From NCBI GenBank assembly GCA_016192845.1, contig JACPTI010000030.1:1281-65280 (forward strand): 64,000 nucleotides of DNA. Direction: 5' to 3'. Made by a program: the position numbers and the translations under genes. The notes beneath the pieces are model-generated. The model saw nothing but the letters and a program-made list of their open reading frames with translations, was not told the DNA's origin and did no database searches. Positions 2 through 10,920 of the stretch are shown one piece after another; the first letter of the stretch is position 1, and each line of letters begins with the position of its first letter. The DNA comes from Acidobacteriota bacterium (GTDB taxonomy: Bacteria > Acidobacteriota > Vicinamibacteria > Vicinamibacterales > UBA2999).

Positions 2-571
2 GTCGTCGGCAACGAGATCCCGTATCAGCCGTGGGCGCTCGAGCGGAAGCAGCAGAACTACGCGCAGCGCACGGCGCTCGACCCGGTGGCCAGGTGCTAC
101 CTCCCCGGCATCCCGCGGCTGATGTACATACCGTTCCCGTTCCAAATCGTGCAGACGCCGAACGAGATCGCGATGCTGTTCGAGTTCGTGCATGCGGTGC
201 GGTTCGTCTTCATGAGCGGCGCGCATCCGCCGGGGCCGATCGACTGGTGGATGGGCGACTCCCGCGGCCGCTGGGAGGGTGACACGCTCGTCGTCGACGC
301 CGTGCACTTCAACGACCGGACGTGGTTCGACAACGCCGGCAACTTCCACAGCGAGGCGCTGCACCTGGTCGAGCGCTACACGATGCTCGGGCCGGATCAC
401 ATCCAGTACGACGTGCGGATCGAGGACCCGAAGGTGTTCACGCGGCCCTGGGACATGAGCCTCGTCCTGTACCGCCGCAAGGAGCGGAACGCGCAGCTCT
501 ACGACTACGAGTGCTACGCGTTCGACTACGAAAAGTACTATCCGTATCCGCAATTGAGGAGTCCGCAATGA
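2..571 (+). CDS. secreted conserved hypothetical protein, paralog copy 1 (5' end outside window)
   Basis: Frame 2 is open from nt 2 (VVGNEIPYQPWALERKQQNY...) to TGA 569-571. Shares motifs PYQPWA, GxPR, GDxRGRWEGDTLVVD and FTRPW with CDS 568-1395 and 10060-10920. G/C-rich third codon positions. Confidence 0.7.
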   Translation, partial: VVGNEIPYQPWALERKQQNYAQRTALDPVARCYLPGIPRLMYIPFPFQIVQTPNEIAMLFEFVHAVRFVFMSGAHPPGPIDWWMGDSRGRWEGDTLVVDAVHFNDRTWFDNAGNFHSEALHLVERYTMLGPDHIQYDVRIEDPKVFTRPWDMSLVLYRRKERNAQLYDYECYAFDYEKYYPYPQLRSPQ

Positions 572-1395
572 GCACGCGACGGCTGATCGGGGCTCTCGGG
601 AGTCTGCTGTTTCTGTGGGTGTCTCCGCCCGTGGCGGCGCAGGAGGCGGGCCCGAGGCCGCTCGAGCGGCTGCCGGACGGGCAGCCGAACGTGCAGGGCG
701 TCTGGGGGCCGGTCAATCCAGGCTCGCTCTCGCTCACGAATCCGGTGCCGCAGCAGGCCGACTTCGATACGACGATCAAGCCGCTGCCGAGCCGGATCAT
801 CGATCCGCCGGACGGCAGGGTGCCGTATCAGCCCTGGGCCGCCGCGCTCCAGAAGGAGCAGAACCACTATTATGCGTATCCCATACGGCCCGAGCACATC
901 GACACGCAGCACCGCTGCATGCTCTCCGGCGTGCCGCGGCTCTTCACGATCGTCCCGGCCCTCAGAATCATCCAGTCGCGCGGCCTGATCGTCTTCCTCT
1001 GGGACACCTATACGGCGTACCGGGTGATTCCGCTCGACAACCGTCCGCACGTGGCGTCGAACGTCAAGCTGTACATGGGCGACGGCCGCGGCCGCTGGGA
1101 CGGGAACACGCTGACGATTGACACGCGCGGCGTGAAGGGGCACCGGCTCACCTACATCGGCGACTTCTACAGCGACAACGCGACGATCCTGGAGCGCCTC
1201 ACCTGGACCGATGCCAACACGTTCACCTACGAGGCGACGATCACCGATCCCGCCGTCTTCACGCGGCCGTGGACGATGCGCCTCGTCCAGCGGCGGCGGC
1301 CGAACGAGGAGATGTGGGAGGGTGCGTGCTACGAGGGGATGGCGGATCCGGACCAGTTCCTGCTGAAGAGCGCCCCGCCCCCGCCGACACGGTAG
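568..1395 (+). CDS. secreted conserved hypothetical protein, paralog copy 2
   Basis: ATG 568 overlaps the upstream stop (ATGA), with GAGGAG a few nt upstream. Signal-peptide-like MSTRRLIGALGSLLFLWVSPPVAAQ. Motifs DGRVPYQPWA, GVPR, GDGRGRWDGNTL and FTRPWTM are shared with the other two copies. Confidence 0.8.
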   Translation: MSTRRLIGALGSLLFLWVSPPVAAQEAGPRPLERLPDGQPNVQGVWGPVNPGSLSLTNPVPQQADFDTTIKPLPSRIIDPPDGRVPYQPWAAALQKEQNHYYAYPIRPEHIDTQHRCMLSGVPRLFTIVPALRIIQSRGLIVFLWDTYTAYRVIPLDNRPHVASNVKLYMGDGRGRWDGNTLTIDTRGVKGHRLTYIGDFYSDNATILERLTWTDANTFTYEATITDPAVFTRPWTMRLVQRRRPNEEMWEGACYEGMADPDQFLLKSAPPPPTR

Positions 1396-1410
1396 CCCCG
1401 ACAGGCGTAG

Positions 1411-1432
1411 AGGCGGACCTTCAGGTCCGCCT
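1411..1432. terminator. perfect 9-bp hairpin (AGGCGGACC-TTCA-GGTCCGCCT), probable bidirectional terminator
   Basis: Read directly. It sits between the stop of CDS 568-1395 and the displaced 3'-end copy of the phosphatidyltransferase gene (repeat 1434-1515). Confidence 0.55.
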
Positions 1433-1433
1433 T

Positions 1434-1515
1434 ACCGCAGGAGCGCCCAGAGCCCCCGGCCGGCGGCCGTCGGGTCGCCGAGCCAGTCCGGCGGCGTCAG
1501 CCAGACGAACGCCAG
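1434..1515. repeat. 82-bp direct repeat, left island boundary (attL-like); displaced copy of the phosphatidyltransferase 3' end
   Basis: 77/82 nt identical to 6788-6869. On the minus strand it still reads FVWLTPPDWLGDPTAAGRGLWALLR-TAA, versus FVWLTPPDWLADPTAAGLGLWALLR-TGA in the intact gene. Confidence 0.85.
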
Positions 1516-1758
1516 CAAGCGCGGTGTTCGCCACGGCGCGCGTCCACCGCGCCTTTCGACTATGTCTGCCGGTTCTTCGCGCCAGCAGGGCGGTCACGGT
1601 CATGAAGGGCGAACTTATCGAGTGACGCCGCGGCCTCGCGCGTGCATGCTGGCTGAACATTCTTGCCCCATCGCCAGCGGTGGCTCGATCAGCACCGCGC
1701 CGTTCGTCTACCCTGCGGCGTTTATCGCGACCGAAATTGCCGTCGGCACTCTTGATCG

Positions 1759-3036
1759 TTGTCGAATGATGCTCCAACCTTCATTGCGTTCGAGGACGAC
1801 ACCGAGCTTAGTTACGATCGTGTCATGTTTACGCTCGTAAAGCATGTTCGCTGGGAGCTCCCGTTCCCATTACGACTTCCGCCACAGGCATTCCTCGGCT
1901 GGGAGCCCCTGCATCGCGTGGCCGCAGTGTGCCTCATTCCCGGTGTCGGTGCGCTTCAGTGGAAACGCCAATGCAGTTTTCTTCAGAGAGCCGACGTGTT
2001 TGTCGATCCCGGGCCTGAACCCTCTGACGACGAGTTTCCCTCTCACAACTACCGCTTGGCATCCCTGCTCGCTCGAAACGGCCGTGAAGTGCTGACTCTT
2101 GAACTCACGGGGGGCCGTGGTGGTGGGTTCGAAGAGGCGCGACCGCACAGCACGGCGAACGTGTTCCTCGTCTTGACATCGCAGGACAGCACTAACGATA
2201 CAGATCTCGTTAACAGGGCGGCCCAGGCGATCAACAATTTCATCACGCTTGTTGCGTTCATGACGCTCGACGGCATGAGCCGACCAATGAACGGCGATCT
2301 TGACAGCTACTACACGGTCATCAGCACCGCGCGCGTGCCGGAGGACCTCGGTTGCGGAACGGCAGAAGAGGTTCTTCTCGGCCTTGACCGTCTCACCTTC
2401 AGCTCAATTGTTGGAGAGGGCCGTTCTCACAAGGTCGGGATGAACTCGTTCGAAGATCTGATGCCGGGAGCGGCCATCGATCGGCCGCCGCTCTTGCCGC
2501 AATTCGTTGATCTAGTCAGAGACGAGCAGCGCTTCGAGCTGTGGCATCAGTTGTTTTGGTCATCGCTCAGACGATTGAAGCGCCGGGAATATGCTCTCGC
2601 CATCCTCGATGCGGAGTCCGCTTTCGAGGTGTGCGTGGCCCTTACTCTCCGGGACGCTCTTCAGCGGCAGGGATTGACTGCTGAGGCTGCGGACGCTGCG
2701 CTTGCCGCCGATCTGGGTCGTCTTCAGGATCGGCTCGTGCGCCTGGATAGAATCGCGCAAGCCGAAGGTGCCACTGAACGCTTCATCGGCAGCCAGGCCG
2801 AGCGGAACTGGCGCCACGAACTCTATGACGTACGCCACGATGTGGTTCATCACGGTATTCGCGAGTTGACATTCGACGTCTCAAAGGCCGGTATCTCTCG
2901 TGGATTGCAGGCGGTCGAGCGACTGCTCACGCTCACGCCAACATTTCGGCGAAACTTCCTGTGGACTCAAGGCGCAACGACGCTGGCGCACCTTCGGGAG
3001 AGCGCTGGTCGTGTGTCTCGCTTGTTCGAATTGTGA
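1759..3036 (+). CDS. hypothetical protein with C-terminal HEPN-like domain (Rx4H motif)
   Basis: 425-aa ORF (TTG 1759; alternative ATG 1825). C-terminal helical region ...NWRHELYDVRHDVVHHG... carries R-x4-H at nt 2833-2850. No signal peptide. Lower GC than the backbone. Confidence 0.6.
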   Translation: MSNDAPTFIAFEDDTELSYDRVMFTLVKHVRWELPFPLRLPPQAFLGWEPLHRVAAVCLIPGVGALQWKRQCSFLQRADVFVDPGPEPSDDEFPSHNYRLASLLARNGREVLTLELTGGRGGGFEEARPHSTANVFLVLTSQDSTNDTDLVNRAAQAINNFITLVAFMTLDGMSRPMNGDLDSYYTVISTARVPEDLGCGTAEEVLLGLDRLTFSSIVGEGRSHKVGMNSFEDLMPGAAIDRPPLLPQFVDLVRDEQRFELWHQLFWSSLRRLKRREYALAILDAESAFEVCVALTLRDALQRQGLTAEAADAALAADLGRLQDRLVRLDRIAQAEGATERFIGSQAERNWRHELYDVRHDVVHHGIRELTFDVSKAGISRGLQAVERLLTLTPTFRRNFLWTQGATTLAHLRESAGRVSRLFEL

Positions 3037-3440
3037 AGCGAAAGCAACGCGCCTGCTCCCCCGCTTCACGGGATGGTCATCACAGATCCGGTTTCAAAAC
3101 AGGACCGCGGACCTTCCGCGCCAGCGTTTCCACACGAACTCGGAGCACGGGGGGAAGGATCCTGATTCACCGCGTCGATGGATCCGTAGCGGCCACACAA
3201 GATGCAGCATGTGGCGCATCACCAGAGCAGGTCGCGTCCGCGGCGACAACGCCGCGACAAATGGGACAGCATCCGGCGTAGGGAGGACGACACGCACGGG
3301 CACTGAGGCTTGCGAACTCGGGTAGCAGGGCCGCGCGGGCGGGCCCGAACATCATCGCTCCAAGGTGCGGCGTTGAACATTACCAATCCGCTTGTGGGAC
3401 GCAGTTTGGCCTCGCGGAGTTTGGCGGAGATCGGCGCGCC

Positions 3441-5777
3441 GTGTTGATCCAGTACGAAGCATGGCCTACGCTGTTCGACAATTCATACATTGTCGCAGGA
3501 GCCGGCGACCGCATGTACGAACTACACAACCTTGGTTGGAACGCCTTCCAACAACTTTGCCTTACGATTGTCAGGGAAATCCTGGGCCAGACCGTCGAGT
3601 CGTTTCTCGATTCCAATGATGGCGGCAGGGACGGCGCGTTCGCGGGCCAATGGAAGACGATCGGTGCCGAGAGCTTCACCGGGCGCTTCGTCATCCAGTG
3701 CAAGTTCACAGCCAGAATCAACTCCACCCTCCGGCTTGCCCATCTGTCCGACGAAGTCGCCAAGGCCAGACGCCTGGTGGAGCAAGGTCGCTGTGACGGC
3801 TACGTCCTTCTGACAAACGCCAAGGTATCGGGAAAGAAGGCAGAACAGATCGAGGATCTCTTCACAGCCGCCGGCGTCAAGCACATCATCGTCCATGGAC
3901 TGAGCTGGATCTGCGATCAGATTCGCGAGAACAAGCGTCTTCGGATGCTGGTGCCGAGGGTTTACGGCTTGGGCGATCTCAGCCAAATTCTCGACGAGCG
4001 CGCGTATACGCAGGCCCGCGCGGTTCTCGCGTCGCTTCGCGAAGAACTCGCAAAGACCGTCGTTACCGAGGCCTACAGGAGGGCCGCTGCGGCGCTGGAC
4101 CAGCACGGATTCGTACTCCTGATCGGTGAACCCGCTGCAGGAAAGACCACCATTGCGTCGCTTTTGTCGATGGCGGCCATCGACCAGTGGAATGCGTCTC
4201 TTTTGAAGCTCGACGCGCCGGGCAAGGTCATGGAGCACTGGAATCCCCACGAACCTTCCCAGTTCTTCTGGCTCGACGACGCCTTCGGCGTCGCGCAGTA
4301 CGAGGCCTTCCTAGTTCACGGGTGGAACCACATTCTCCCGCAGTTGCCAACGATGCTCAGGACAGGCGCCAAGGTCGTGATGACGTCGCGCGACTATATC
4401 TACAACAGCGCGCGCAAGGACCTAAAGGAAGGGGCGTTCCCTCTGATGAAGGAGAGCCGGGTTGTCATCGACGTGCAGGACCTGACGGCAGAGGAGAGAC
4501 GACAGATCCTCTACAACCATCTCAAGCTCGGGAAGCAGCCGAAGAGTTTTCGGGCGGACATCAAGCCACACCTTGAAGCGGTCGCATTGCATCGGCGGTT
4601 CATTCCGGAGACGGCAAGGCGCTTGGCCGACCCGCTCTTCACGAAGGGGCTGTACATTGACGACTACTACCTGGGACAGTTCGTGGAGAAGCGTGAACAA
4701 CTCCTCCAGGAGGTCCTGCAGGGGATCGACGACGACAGCAAGGCCGCCCTTGCCCTCGTCTACATGAGGAACGACCGGCTCGAGAGCCCGATCCAGCTCC
4801 AGCCTTCAGAAGAGCAGGCGATCGCGCGTCTGCGCAGCACGCTCGGCGGCTGCGTCGCGGCACTTGAGGCGCTCAAGGGCAGCCTCGTGCAGCACTTCTA
4901 CGACAACGGCGAATCCGTCTGGCGTTTCAAGCACCCGACGATCGGCGACGCATACGCCTCGATCCTCGTCCGGAATCCAGAACTCTTGGGCATTTACGTC
5001 CAGGGCACCGCGCCCGAGAAGCTGGTGGAGCAAGTCACCTGCGGCGACGTCGGGATTGAACAGGCGGTCATCATTCCGAAGGCGTTGTATCCGCTGGTGC
5101 TCAGCCGCCTCCGCGAGTTCGCCACGACGGCGTATAAGGATCCCTGGCTCGCCCGTTGGTCGGCGCGGAGCGGGCTTCAGGGCTTCTTGAGGTGGCGCTG
5201 CTCGAAAGAATTCTTGTCACTGTACCTCGCCAACCATCCAGACCTCTTGGACAAGGTGTCGCAGCCCGGTCTCATGCTCGACTCAGTGCCTGAAGTCGGC
5301 CTCGCGGTCCGCCTCCACGAATTGGGCTTGCTGCCGGAGGGCCACTGCAGGAAGTTCGTCGCCGCTGTCAGTAACTACGCCTTGGAAGGCCAGGATCTGT
5401 ACGCGCTGGACAACCTGGGCATCCGGAGTGTGTTTGAAGATCACGAGTTCGGCGAGTTCCTGCTAAAGGTCCGCACCGAATTGGTGCCCCGGCTAGACCA
5501 CATCCGCCGCGAATGGCAGAGCAACTATCCGTCTGATGACAGGCCTGAAAGCTACATGCAGCCCCTGCTCGACTCGTTCGAAGCGCTCAAAGGTCACTTC
5601 GTGGACGACCAGGAATCAATGAAGATCGTCGAGCGGGAGGCCGGACGCGCGGCTGAATGGATTCATGAGCATATGCCCGACGACTCCGACGAGAAGCCCC
5701 GCCGCAAGCTCGGGAAAGTGACCGCGGCCGATGCGCCTGGTGGCGAACGGAGCATCTTCGACGACGTCGACTTGTGA
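3441..5777 (+). CDS. Mrr-like (PD-(D/E)xK) nuclease domain fused to P-loop/STAND-like NTPase with alpha-helical C-terminal region
   Basis: 778-aa ORF (GTG 3441; alternative ATG 3513). The N-terminus DSNDGGRDGAF...GRFVIQCKF...YVLLTNAKVS (nt 3618-3704) fits the restriction-endonuclease D...(Q/E)xK pattern. Walker A is LLIGEPAAGKTT (4125-4148) and Walker B is FFWLDDAFG (4263-4289). It is followed by about 450 aa of helical, repeat-like sequence. Confidence 0.7.
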   Translation: MLIQYEAWPTLFDNSYIVAGAGDRMYELHNLGWNAFQQLCLTIVREILGQTVESFLDSNDGGRDGAFAGQWKTIGAESFTGRFVIQCKFTARINSTLRLAHLSDEVAKARRLVEQGRCDGYVLLTNAKVSGKKAEQIEDLFTAAGVKHIIVHGLSWICDQIRENKRLRMLVPRVYGLGDLSQILDERAYTQARAVLASLREELAKTVVTEAYRRAAAALDQHGFVLLIGEPAAGKTTIASLLSMAAIDQWNASLLKLDAPGKVMEHWNPHEPSQFFWLDDAFGVAQYEAFLVHGWNHILPQLPTMLRTGAKVVMTSRDYIYNSARKDLKEGAFPLMKESRVVIDVQDLTAEERRQILYNHLKLGKQPKSFRADIKPHLEAVALHRRFIPETARRLADPLFTKGLYIDDYYLGQFVEKREQLLQEVLQGIDDDSKAALALVYMRNDRLESPIQLQPSEEQAIARLRSTLGGCVAALEALKGSLVQHFYDNGESVWRFKHPTIGDAYASILVRNPELLGIYVQGTAPEKLVEQVTCGDVGIEQAVIIPKALYPLVLSRLREFATTAYKDPWLARWSARSGLQGFLRWRCSKEFLSLYLANHPDLLDKVSQPGLMLDSVPEVGLAVRLHELGLLPEGHCRKFVAAVSNYALEGQDLYALDNLGIRSVFEDHEFGEFLLKVRTELVPRLDHIRREWQSNYPSDDRPESYMQPLLDSFEALKGHFVDDQESMKIVEREAGRAAEWIHEHMPDDSDEKPRRKLGKVTAADAPGGERSIFDDVDL

Positions 5778-6159
5778 GTGGTAACCGCGACCGTGCGCTC
5801 GCTCCATCTCCAGCGCGCGCTTCGCCGTGAACGCTGCGCGCTCATCGCTCCAGGCAGTCCGTTCTCACTGCTTTGCGCGAAAAGAGCGGCGCTTGGCGCC
5901 AAGATGTCGTCACCGAGCGTGAGAAGCGTCACTCGTCGAATCGTCCTTTCACGCACGATCCTGCCGCGTTGACGATCGGCGTGCTCACCGTACTGCTCAT
6001 CGAGGAGACGCAGAACACAGAGCGCCGCAGATAGAAACGAGTAGTCGCCATATGCTGACCGACACAGCATGGCCACGTCGGAATCCGACGCCTCCAGCGG
6101 CGGGCGTGCGGCGGACGCTCGGCGTGCTGAACCTTGCCTTGGGGGGCTGGGCGCGCCCG

Positions 6160-6378
6160 TCAACGAGCCTGGTAAATCGCTGGTCGGTATCGAGGTGATG
6201 GAACGGGCTTCCCGGCCGCCCGCGCGGCATCCAACCAGAGTTGCTTGGCGCGTTCCACCTCGCGCAATGCCTGTTCGGGAGTCTGTCCGAAGGCCGAACA
6301 GGCATCTAGATCCGGAATGTCAGCGACGTAGGCGGCGTCTTCCTCGCTGTAGAAAATGTTGATGTGGTAGTCGCTCAT
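6160..6378 (-). CDS. hicB: HicB-family antitoxin
   Basis: 72 aa: MSDYHINIFYSEEDAAYVADIPDLDACSAFGQTPEQALREVERAKQLWLD..., a typical HicB/UPF0150 N-terminal fold sequence. Overlaps hicA by 4 nt. Confidence 0.8.
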   Translation of the reverse strand: MSDYHINIFYSEEDAAYVADIPDLDACSAFGQTPEQALREVERAKQLWLDAARAAGKPVPSPRYRPAIYQAR

Positions 6379-6632
6379 GGCGCGTCCCCTAACCTCAGAT
6401 TGTAGCGCTCGACGAGCCGAAGCACCTGCCGAATCTGATACGGCTTCGCGTCGCCGCCGACGTCCTGAACGTTGACGAGTTCTGGAATCTGCCGGTGCCC
6501 GTAGATTCGATGGCTTCCGGAGGTTCTGATGATCGAGAAGCCAAACGCCTCTACCAAGCGGCAGAAGTCGCTGAAGCTCACGTTCTGTAGGTCGCCCCGC
6601 GAGATTCGGGCTAGCAGCTTGCGCGGTTGCAT
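6375..6632 (-). CDS. hicA: HicA-family mRNA interferase toxin
   Basis: 85 aa containing F..L...GF....R.SGSHRIY, the hallmark of HicA/YcfA. Lies upstream of and is translationally coupled to hicB. Confidence 0.8.
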   Translation of the reverse strand: MQPRKLLARISRGDLQNVSFSDFCRLVEAFGFSIIRTSGSHRIYGHRQIPELVNVQDVGGDAKPYQIRQVLRLVERYNLRLGDAP

Positions 6633-6644
6633 TGTTCGCGTTGG

Positions 6645-6678
6645 ACTCCGCGCAGTATAGCGACTCTCACTCCGCGCA
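6645..6678 (-). promoter_or_regulatory. hicAB promoter/operator candidate: 10-nt direct repeat flanking a TATACT -10
   Basis: ACTCCGCGCA occurs at 6645-6654 and 6669-6678 (plus strand). On the minus strand this reads TGCGCGGAGT-N14(containing TATACT)-TGCGCGGAGT, and the promoter-proximal copy ends 12 nt upstream of the hicA ATG. Confidence 0.4.
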
Positions 6679-6785
6679 CCTTCGCGACCGATAGGTAATG
6701 ATCAGTCGCCAAGGGTTGACCGACCTTCGCGCCATAAAGCCCGAAGAGGCGACAGCAGACGTAGGTAACTGGCAGCGCCGATCGA

Positions 6786-7556
6786 TCACCGCAGGAGCGC
6801 CCAGAGCCCCAGGCCGGCGGCCGTCGGATCGGCGAGCCAGTCGGGCGGTGTCAGCCAGACGAACGCCAGAATCGCGATCACCCACGCGTCGTAGGGGATC
6901 GTCGTCCGCTCGTCCCGCCAGAAGAACGCGCGCCAGAACGCCCGCGCGGCGATGGTCGCGCCGGCCGGCATCGGCCGGCCGTTGAGCGCCAGATACGTGT
7001 GGTGGATCCGGTTGATCACGGTCACGACCGACAGGACGAGGATGACCCACAGGACGCCGGCCATCCGGTCGGTGAAGGCGCCGATCATGAAGAGGACGAT
7101 GCGCTCCGGCCGCTCCATGAAGCCCACCTTGCACTTCTCGATGAGCGACTCGGCGCGCGCCCGGGTGTAGCTCGTCATAATCGAAAACATCATGGTGAGT
7201 GCCGCCACCATCACGTAGTCGGTGCGCCGGAGGTCGGCGTAGAGGTAGATTAGGCCGAGGAACAGGGCGATATCGGAGAACCGGTCGAGCGTCGAGTCCC
7301 AGAAGGCGCCGAAGCGCGAGACCGTGTTGGTCAGGTGCGCGACCTTGCCGTCGATGAAGTCGAAGATGTTGGCGACGATCATCATCACGCCCGCCAGGAG
7401 GAACCGGTCGACGCCGAGCGCGCACGCGGCCGCCACATTCACCAGCACGCCGATGAGCGTGAGCACGTTGGGGTGGATGCCGAGCGCCACGCTGGCGGCG
7501 ATGATGGCGCGCAGCGGGAACATGCAGGCGGTTCCCACCAAGCCGGTAAATGTCAT
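6786..7556 (-). CDS. CDP-alcohol phosphatidyltransferase family protein
   Basis: 256-aa multi-TM protein. DFIDGKVAHLTNTVSRFGAFWDSTLDRFSD matches the DG-x2-A(R/H)-x8-G-x3-D-x3-D family motif. Confidence 0.85.
   Translation of the reverse strand: MTFTGLVGTACMFPLRAIIAASVALGIHPNVLTLIGVLVNVAAACALGVDRFLLAGVMMIVANIFDFIDGKVAHLTNTVSRFGAFWDSTLDRFSDIALFLGLIYLYADLRRTDYVMVAALTMMFSIMTSYTRARAESLIEKCKVGFMERPERIVLFMIGAFTDRMAGVLWVILVLSVVTVINRIHHTYLALNGRPMPAGATIAARAFWRAFFWRDERTTIPYDAWVIAILAFVWLTPPDWLADPTAAGLGLWALLR
6788..6869. repeat. 82-bp direct repeat, right island boundary (attR-like); functional 3' end of the phosphatidyltransferase gene
   Basis: See 1434-1515. This copy is contiguous with the rest of CDS 6786-7556. 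Confidence 0.85.
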
Positions 7557-10059: not shown

Positions 10060-10920
10060 CTAGTGGGGGCCCTTGCCCGTGACGCCGGGATAGATGCGGT
10101 AGCCGAGGTCGATGAGAGGCTGCGTGTTGCGCTCGCCTTCGTGGCACGCCTCCTCGAGCAGCTCGAGATCCCGTTCCGCCATGCGCCTGAGCGGAAACGC
10201 CATCGTCCAGGGACGCGTGTAGACGCCTGGGTCCTCGATCGTGGCCTGCACGTGGATCGTGTCAGGGTCGATGCGGGTGAACCGGGCGACGATGTGGGCC
10301 CGTTCCGAATAGAAGTTTCCGGCCTGGTCGAACCACGGCTTCGCGTTGAGGTTCGTCACGTCGACGACCAGCGTCGAGCCTTCCCAGTGCCCGCGCAGGT
10401 CTCCCTGCCACAGGCCTACATTCCCGCCGATGTGCGGACGCGCGTCGGTTGGAATGATCCAGTAGGTATGCGCCCGCTCGAAGAGCACGACGACATATCC
10501 GCGCGTCTGCAGAATCTGGATGGTGGTCGGCGTGTAGAGCGAGCGTGGAACGCCGGACGGGAAACACGGCACGTTGGGATCGATGTACCGTGCCTTGTTC
10601 TCGTCGCGCTGCGCCGCCGCCCAGCGTTGGTACGGAATCCTGCCGTCCGGCGGGTCGACGATGAGGCTCGGCCCGCCGGCGTCGTCGAGCGTCTTGGGAT
10701 GAGCCTCGATGCTCTCGGTCGCGTAGGTCGGGCCGCGCCAGAACCCCTGCAGGCTGGCTTTGCCGTCCGGTGTTCGCGGCGGATCGAACACCGCGCCCCG
10801 TGCCACCGCGCAGGGATGGAACAGTGCGGGGTCGGCCGGACAACGCTCCTGTGCCGAGGTCAGCGGCGCCGCCAGTCCGGTGACGGCAGCCGCTGCCACG
10901 ACACAGGCCGACAGCCTCAC
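10060..10920 (-). CDS. secreted conserved hypothetical protein, paralog copy 3
   Basis: 286 aa. The GTG start overlaps the upstream stop (GTGA). Signal peptide MRLSACVVAAAAVTGLAAPLTSAQ. Motifs DGRIPYQRWA, GVPR, GDLRGHWEGSTLVVD and YTRPWTM. Confidence 0.8.
   Translation of the reverse strand: MRLSACVVAAAAVTGLAAPLTSAQERCPADPALFHPCAVARGAVFDPPRTPDGKASLQGFWRGPTYATESIEAHPKTLDDAGGPSLIVDPPDGRIPYQRWAAAQRDENKARYIDPNVPCFPSGVPRSLYTPTTIQILQTRGYVVVLFERAHTYWIIPTDARPHIGGNVGLWQGDLRGHWEGSTLVVDVTNLNAKPWFDQAGNFYSERAHIVARFTRIDPDTIHVQATIEDPGVYTRPWTMAFPLRRMAERDLELLEEACHEGERNTQPLIDLGYRIYPGVTGKGPH

Follow-up and report, generated by a model that had tools for sequence, protein, structure and literature searches.

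A foreign 5.27-kb islet with putative defence genes lies between two copies of a phosphatidyltransferase gene end in a Vicinamibacterales chromosome

Results

The stretch of DNA analysed here, called the window, consists of 64,000 nucleotides of contig JACPTI010000030.1 (assembly GCA_016192845.1) from an Acidobacteriota bacterium of the order Vicinamibacterales. It contains a 5,270-bp island (1516-6785) located between two copies of the 3' end of a CDP-alcohol phosphatidyltransferase gene. This gene, hereafter the target gene, lies on the minus strand (6786-7556) and encodes a protein of 256 aa with a CDP-OH_P_transf domain (Pfam PF01066, 1e-14). The two copies are direct repeats of 82 nt (1434-1515 and 6788-6869) that align without gaps and are identical at 77/82 positions (blastn E = 8e-32; first 20 nt, CTGGCGTTCGTCTGGCTGAC), as an earlier note made from the letters of this DNA alone had described. 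The pair was recovered in a repeat scan of the window, in which each half of the repeat has exactly 2 occurrences compared with 0 expected in shuffles. The same note had raised the possibility that the 82-mer is a dispersed repeat; only these two copies are present in the window.

The repeat covers the last 27 codons of the target gene, starting at the final base of its stop codon. The right copy (6786-6869 on the minus strand when its stop is included) reads in frame ...LAFVWLTPPDWLADPTAAGLGLWALLR followed by TGA. It constitutes the 3' end of CDS 6786-7556, and the gene that it completes has the full length found in all orthologues. The left copy (1432-1515, minus strand, stop included) is an orphan tail that reads in frame LAFVWLTPPDWLGDPTAAGRGLWALLR followed by its own TAA at 1432-1434. 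Over these 27 codons, the two tails differ by 2 substitutions and have 25 residues in common. Both translations agree with the earlier note, which had taken the right copy for the working gene end and the left one for a second version of the same residues with a stop of its own. Past codon 27, the gene body follows the right copy whereas the left copy passes into unrelated DNA, the sequence from 1516 onwards being unlike the gene. The five mismatches of the repeat fall at third (three) and second (two) codon positions with zero indels, and both amino-acid variants (A/G and L/R) are present in the natural tails of close relatives. The type of the mismatches, the absence of indels and the natural occurrence of both variants suggest that the copies are two functional gene ends coming from different lineages, and not a decaying duplicate. 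The longest blocks of perfect identity within the repeat, read from the alignment, are 23 and 20 bp.

Outside the repeats, the right copy leads into the native body of the target gene, and the left copy adjoins a hairpin and a neighbouring gene that are both native. The neighbouring gene, called here flankB (568-1395, plus strand), is convergent with the target gene, encodes 275 aa with no Pfam domain and marks the native chromosome beyond the island. We compared the window with 80 orthologous loci (L001-L080; one genome per species, all from Vicinamibacterales or other Acidobacteriota). At three of them, L001 (93% identity for the target protein), L004 and L006, approximately 75-130 bp separate the gene stop from a convergent flankB homologue (73-87% identical), an arrangement that corresponds to an empty site. 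Window genes 568-1395 and 86-571 are both syntenic with these three loci, and therefore the island boundaries are the exact inner edges of the repeats. Homologues of the island proteins were found at none of the 80 loci, and a second copy of the gene tail at none of them either, within the 10 kb from the gene that this search reached. The insertion polymorphism that the earlier note had suggested looking for is thus observed, the presence and absence of the island being seen between related species only.

The hairpin (1411-1432) lies between the orphan tail and flankB. It is made of a perfect 9-bp stem and a 4-nt loop (AGGCGGACC-TTCA-GGTCCGCCT), with folding energies of -22.7 and -24.8 kcal/mol and z-scores of -2.9 and -5.8. 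The earlier note had presented it as a perfect terminator hairpin abutting the left copy: it is real, strongly folding and adjoining, but it has no U-tract. It probably serves the two convergent genes as their native terminator in both directions. Inverted-repeat sequence is likewise present, as judged by eye, in this intergenic position at the empty sites of L001, L004 and L006, and the intergenic DNA downstream of the target gene is not conserved between species.

The island has a GC content of 0.608 (60.8%) compared with 0.693 (69.3%) for the rest of the window, in which the lowest value of any other 5.27-kb stretch is 0.657. The GC content at third codon positions (GC3) is 0.65-0.78 in the island genes versus 0.95 in the target gene and 0.92 in uvrC. 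Both profiles bear out the lower GC content and the more frequent A/T-ending codons noticed earlier, and the interior is foreign in composition throughout, as expected for a genomic island. Thus, the island DNA is foreign and has not been ameliorated towards the composition of its host.

Two contigs from other public runs (Logan; L091 and L092) match the window at 1076-5519 and 1146-5519 with 100% identity; the runs named for the locus are SRR12113401 and SRR12113385. The left junction, with flankB, the hairpin, the orphan tail and the island, is not an assembly artefact since it is reproduced in two independent assemblies. The right junction is present only in the window's own contig and both Logan contigs stop at 5519, which would fit either a chimeric contig in which two strains are joined at the gene tail that they share, or a local duplication of the tail with DNA accumulating between the copies. 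We hold such an origin to be very improbable: a left junction found with 100% identity in two assemblies is impossible without an insertion, the right copy is in frame and gives the gene the length of all its orthologues, and the interior is foreign from end to end. The shared stop at 5519 falls within the part of the nSTAND3 gene (described below) that encodes the C-terminal region, and may reflect strain-level variation in this presumed sensor region or a break in coverage.

The genes of the island are of the conflict type, as the earlier note had recognised, and comprise a HEPN-fold protein, a Mrr_cat + nSTAND3 protein and a HicA/HicB pair. Cargo gene 1 (1759-3036, plus strand; GC3 0.65) encodes a HEPN-type protein of 403-425 aa, the start being probably at 1825 (403 aa from there). 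This protein has no match in Pfam, PADLOC, NCBIfam or PHROG, and only 18 relatives were found among 5.8 billion proteins. The alignment of the family reveals two groups of invariant residues, D262, A263, S265 and E268 (D-A-x-S-x-x-E) on the one hand, and R337-x4-H342-x-G344-x-R346, which contains an Rx4H motif, on the other. In an AlphaFold (AF2) model with a pLDDT of 85, the R337/H342 motif is located in a helical C-terminal domain, for which Foldseek returned the HEPN structures 2hsb (prob 0.98, TMt 0.64) and 2q00 (prob 0.93) with weak E-values (0.3-0.5). The protein combines the four-helix fold and the Rx4-6H motif characteristic of HEPN domains with no sequence-profile match. Its beta-rich N-terminal half gave no convincing structural match. 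Cargo gene 1 could encode an abortive-infection effector of the RNase type. Members of the family (P0002-P0018, L081-L090) are always found among restriction, toxin-antitoxin or STAND genes, with immediate neighbours that vary; Mrr, Eco57I, PIN and HicA genes are present in these surroundings, and an integrase near one of the relatives. The family is a candidate stand-alone abortive-infection gene.

Cargo gene 2 (3441-5777, plus strand) encodes a STAND protein of 778 aa with a Mrr_cat domain (Pfam 2.6e-4, residues 29-131), an nSTAND3 domain (1.5e-40, residues 207-362) and a helical C-terminal region, the tail of about 400 residues being without a Pfam match. PADLOC assigned it to the candidate family PDC-S73 (3.3e-29). 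An effector, a STAND NTPase and a C-terminal sensor region on a single polypeptide is the layout of Avs proteins, and cargo gene 2 is predicted to be an Avs-like defence protein. In Avs5, which has been studied experimentally, the NTPase module is nSTAND3 (bioRxiv 10.1101/2025.07.08.663546). Avs5 (SIR2, nSTAND3 and repeats) and cargo gene 2 are alike in having an effector, an nSTAND3 NTPase and a helical C-terminus; the effector of Avs5 is however a SIR2 domain and that of cargo gene 2 a Mrr-type PD-(D/E)xK nuclease, in a family known only as a PADLOC candidate (PDC-S73). Cargo gene 2 has more than 3,480 homologues with ~65-73% identity in several phyla, and this level of identity is seen across Betaproteobacteria, Vicinamibacterales and Candidatus Abyssubacteria. 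At one Vicinamibacterales locus (L093, 5757-11553), a Mrr_cat + nSTAND3 gene lies between two ISAZ013 DDE transposase genes in an arrangement resembling a composite transposon. Such features suggest that the family may have undergone frequent recent horizontal transfer using several vehicles. The HEPN family (18 members) and the nSTAND3 homologues sit in contexts that differ from that of the island.

The remaining cargo is a toxin-antitoxin pair on the minus strand, formed by a HicB-like antitoxin (6160-6378, 72 aa; Pfam HicB_lk_antitox 1.1e-6, PHROG 497) and a HicA toxin (6375-6632, 85 aa; Pfam HicA_toxin 1.3e-9, PHROG 353). The two genes overlap by 4 bp, as in type II toxin-antitoxin systems. 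hicA is located 153 bp downstream of the target gene in the same orientation, and both putative defence genes, cargo 1 and cargo 2, are convergent with hicAB.

Four non-coding stretches complete the island. The distal end (1516-1758, 243 bp) contains no six-frame Pfam match, no Rfam match and no match to a related locus. The two gaps between genes reported in the earlier note (3037-3440 and 5778-6159) both exist, but the first one more likely reaches 3512, as the next gene has homologues that start ~24 codons later, at about residue 25. In gap 1, no Pfam match was obtained in open reading frames (ORFs) or in six frames and no Rfam match either, and its fold z-score is +0.87. Gap 2 holds a terminator-like hairpin on the minus strand (5901-5887), downstream of hicB. 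The proximal end (6633-6785, 153 bp) is without terminator-like structure, with a fold z-score of +1.2 for 6740-6790. The four stretches match no protein family in six-frame translation (Pfam, E <= 10), and searches for non-coding RNA in them gave no Rfam match at E <= 1, folding being no better than that of shuffled sequence; their DNA has no similarity to any fetched related locus. Since the native hairpin is now 5.3 kb away, the 153 bp contain no terminator and the orientation is the same, transcription of the target gene may run into hicAB, possibly leading to co-transcription. HicAB itself may stabilise the islet.

The target gene adjoins uvrC across Vicinamibacterales, uvrC being divergently upstream in the window and in almost all of the 80 loci. 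With NCBIfam, the target protein scored 1e-41 for archin_ph_syn, 4e-35 for PIPSynth and 4e-6 for PgsA, the first two below their cut-offs. It thus appears closer to the phosphatidylinositol-phosphate synthase models than to PgsA, with scores below the cut-offs. Its orthologues are labelled PgsA in public sources, despite better scores for archaetidylinositol-phosphate/phosphatidylinositol-phosphate synthase. The protein forms a singleton cluster whose nearest relative is 92% identical, and it has a conserved C-terminal extension of ~65 aa inside which the island is located. Three paralogues without a Pfam domain, at 86-571, 568-1395 (flankB) and 10060-10920 (minus strand), surround the uvrC/phosphatidyltransferase pair, two in tandem on one side and one inverted on the opposite side, as in L001 and L002; they generate the long inverted repeats I1-I3 of the repeat scan.

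The interval between the phosphatidyltransferase gene and Ku varies across L001-L080 and contains mostly ordinary genes. It holds a fragment of a 7TM-PAS sensor in L002, four histidine-kinase/response-regulator genes in L018, an RND efflux pump in L073, and a DDE_5 transposase in L043 together with low-GC3 genes, one of which encodes a 2'-5' RNA ligase-like protein. A dedicated integration hotspot with attachment-site (att) duplications is unsupported, as no duplicated gene tail is present in the 80 variable Ku-side intervals.

No integrase, excisionase or transposase was found among the ORFs of the island with Pfam, gap ORFs of at least 50 aa included, and the six-frame translations of the four non-coding stretches gave no recombinase remnant (Pfam, E <= 10). 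Searches of the whole window by tblastn with one integrase, 1 transposase and neighbours of cargo homologues as queries gave no match, and no integrase is present among the 10 ORFs of lowest GC3 in the remaining 57 kb. The earlier note, which had seen no trace of such genes in any frame, was therefore right on this point. An island of the type found at icd would have an integrase gene beside an att site, and none lies beside either repeat. No relatives in IMG/VR, matches in plasmid or phage DNA or other copies of the cassette were found in the databases searched. Several kinds of element were considered and rejected. A transposon or insertion sequence would not agree with the lack of a transposase and of listed terminal inverted repeats, nor with a duplication that is 82 bp long and imperfect. 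A tRNA target is not applicable as there is no tRNA in the window. Integrative mobile elements exploiting Xer (IMEX), such as the CTX phage and the gonococcal genetic island, have no integrase of their own; they use the XerCD recombinases of the host and are bounded by short direct repeats of the target. They insert at chromosomal dif (28-bp dif-like sites), whereas the target here is the tail of a coding gene and the repeat, inspected by eye, is GC-rich with no AT-rich dif-like core.

Discussion

The repeats correspond to the 3' end of the target gene, the gene is intact and an orphan 3' fragment lies at the distal end, which is the configuration known from e14 at icd. The live gene ends in the proximal copy and runs directly into island DNA, and the other copy is stranded 5.3 kb away. 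We consider it probable, although far from certain, that the island is a horizontally acquired genomic islet of 5.27 kb resulting from an att-type integration into a Vicinamibacterales chromosome by which the target gene received a new end in place of its own. In such a process, a circular element with an attP-like mimic of the last 27 phosphatidyltransferase codons would have recombined with the gene's own tail, the enzyme being probably a site-specific recombinase of the tyrosine type. The right copy would then be the proximal att-like site, supplied in all or in part by the element, and the left copy, joined to the native downstream DNA, the distal one. The recombinase gene would either have been lost by deletion along with the remainder of a larger parent element, so that a remnant resembling a cis-mobilizable element (CIME) was left, or never have been part of the element, the integrase being supplied in trans. 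The surviving genes (Mrr/nSTAND3, HEPN and HicAB) would be those kept by selection or addiction. The earlier note had already proposed an insertion into the gene's 3' end with a replacement end, and had named three outcomes that would contradict it, namely the same arrangement in all relatives, a dispersed 82-mer and an unremarkable GC and codon profile. None of these was obtained and the proposal is supported.

Several observations weigh against an att-type integration. Compared with 79 relatives, the states of the repeat mismatches form a mosaic, the left copy having the common state at the two informative sites of the 5' side and the right copy at the 3'-most site, so that a crossover within the repeat is not locatable. 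A scar of a recombinase pseudogene is not detectable, and the loss by deletion is assumed. Neither an integrase-bearing relative nor an element with an att site in the phosphatidyltransferase tail was found in the databases searched, and the closest relatives of the cargo proteins share no more than 50% and 72% identity with them, in contexts that are unrelated. Look-ups for exact matches to the target protein, HicA and flankB, aimed at the same species, gave no record, and the right junction rests on a single contig. Metagenome scans for the empty-site junction pattern and for a 31-mer spanning the hairpin and the left copy also gave no match; this negative is uninformative because the species is absent from the scanned collection.

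The main rival of an att-type integration is a RecA-dependent insertion of the Campbell type, in which circular DNA with a tail captured from a related bacterium would have entered by a single crossover in the 82 bp, with no dedicated recombinase. Such an event would explain that no integrase or remnant is present and that both repeat variants resemble natural tails of related lineages. The precise end of the homology at the stop codon is not informative in this respect, as the downstream intergenic DNA is unconserved between species and the homology would seem to end there regardless. However, the blocks of perfect identity measure only 23 and 20 bp. For RecA of E. coli, 20-23 bp does not exceed the usual minimal efficient processing segment. 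Moreover, the capture of the tail would still require that DNA inserted earlier at this site had been excised imprecisely, and no donor-like arrangement is found in the 80 relatives. We therefore regard a RecA-dependent insertion as unlikely.

An att-type integration at a gene 3' end has a classical precedent. e14 is integrated at the 3' end of icd and supplies the gene end, leaving the icdC pseudogene (PMC13626634). At icd of E. coli K-12, e14 (and phage 21) share with the island the use of the 3' end of a housekeeping gene and the presence of element-supplied codons in the live gene. A near-identical C-terminal fragment with few substitutions between the copies is likewise found at the far end of both (PMC13626634). 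They differ in that e14 is ~15 kb long, carries an integrase gene of its own and is excised upon SOS induction, whereas the island is 5.3 kb long, is without a recombinase and occupies another gene in another phylum. The absence of integration genes is in turn what defines CIMEs, elements that keep attL and attR and have lost the genes for integration and transfer (PMC6323972, PMC5704250). They are read as decayed integrative and conjugative elements (ICEs) or integrative and mobilizable elements (IMEs) (PMC6323972, PMC5704250). The island, with no integration or conjugation genes, resembles them in this respect, for example those at the 3' end of fda in Streptococcus thermophilus. For CIMEs, however, both the corresponding ICE family and its integrase have been identified and mobilisation in cis has been demonstrated, whereas the repeats of the island are att-like by sequence only. 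No ICE or IME with the same specificity was found in the 80 loci, in IMG/VR, in plasmid and phage collections or around the cargo homologues. In view of e14/icd and of integrase-less, att-flanked islands such as CIMEs, the opinion of the earlier note that a protein-coding target with no integrase is unusual was overstated.

CIMEs also bear on another explanation, in which the island is a functional non-autonomous hitch-hiker that never had an integrase and was moved in trans, either by the integrase of a co-resident element or by a host recombinase in the manner of IMEX and XerCD. As would be expected, both att-like copies are intact with no indels in a compact element, and integrase-less elements mobilised by a helper are known, CIMEs being mobilised in cis (PMC6323972). 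On the other hand, no second occupant of the site or tandem array is seen here or in the 80 relatives, the low-GC3 ORFs of the remaining window offer no integrase, the repeat contains no AT-rich dif-like site to the eye, and no other copy of the cassette was found in the databases searched. A hitch-hiker thus appears quite unlikely. It is more doubtful still that the islet remains functional and belongs to an undescribed class of minimal defence cassettes of Acidobacteriota that lack an integrase. If it were, the gene-tail mimic would be the sole mobility determinant, with movement by a helper integrase in trans or by host recombination. Retention would be ensured by HicAB, whose genes would be expressed by read-through from the phosphatidyltransferase gene.

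Integration into a gene 3' end, imperfect repeats, foreign composition, a cargo of defence and toxin-antitoxin genes and an absent integrase are each well known. New are the host lineage, this target gene and the rare HEPN family in the cargo. The islet does not overturn current understanding and its value is mostly for annotation, as island finders that require an integrase would miss it. With it, the known protein-coding integration targets come to include the tail of a phosphatidyltransferase gene, and it indicates that a toxin-antitoxin pair and two putative defence genes can persist after the machinery that brought them in is gone. The mobile elements of Acidobacteriota are barely described, and the islet provides a clean and well-delimited case of predicted anti-phage genes entering and persisting in the genomes of uncultured soil members of this phylum.

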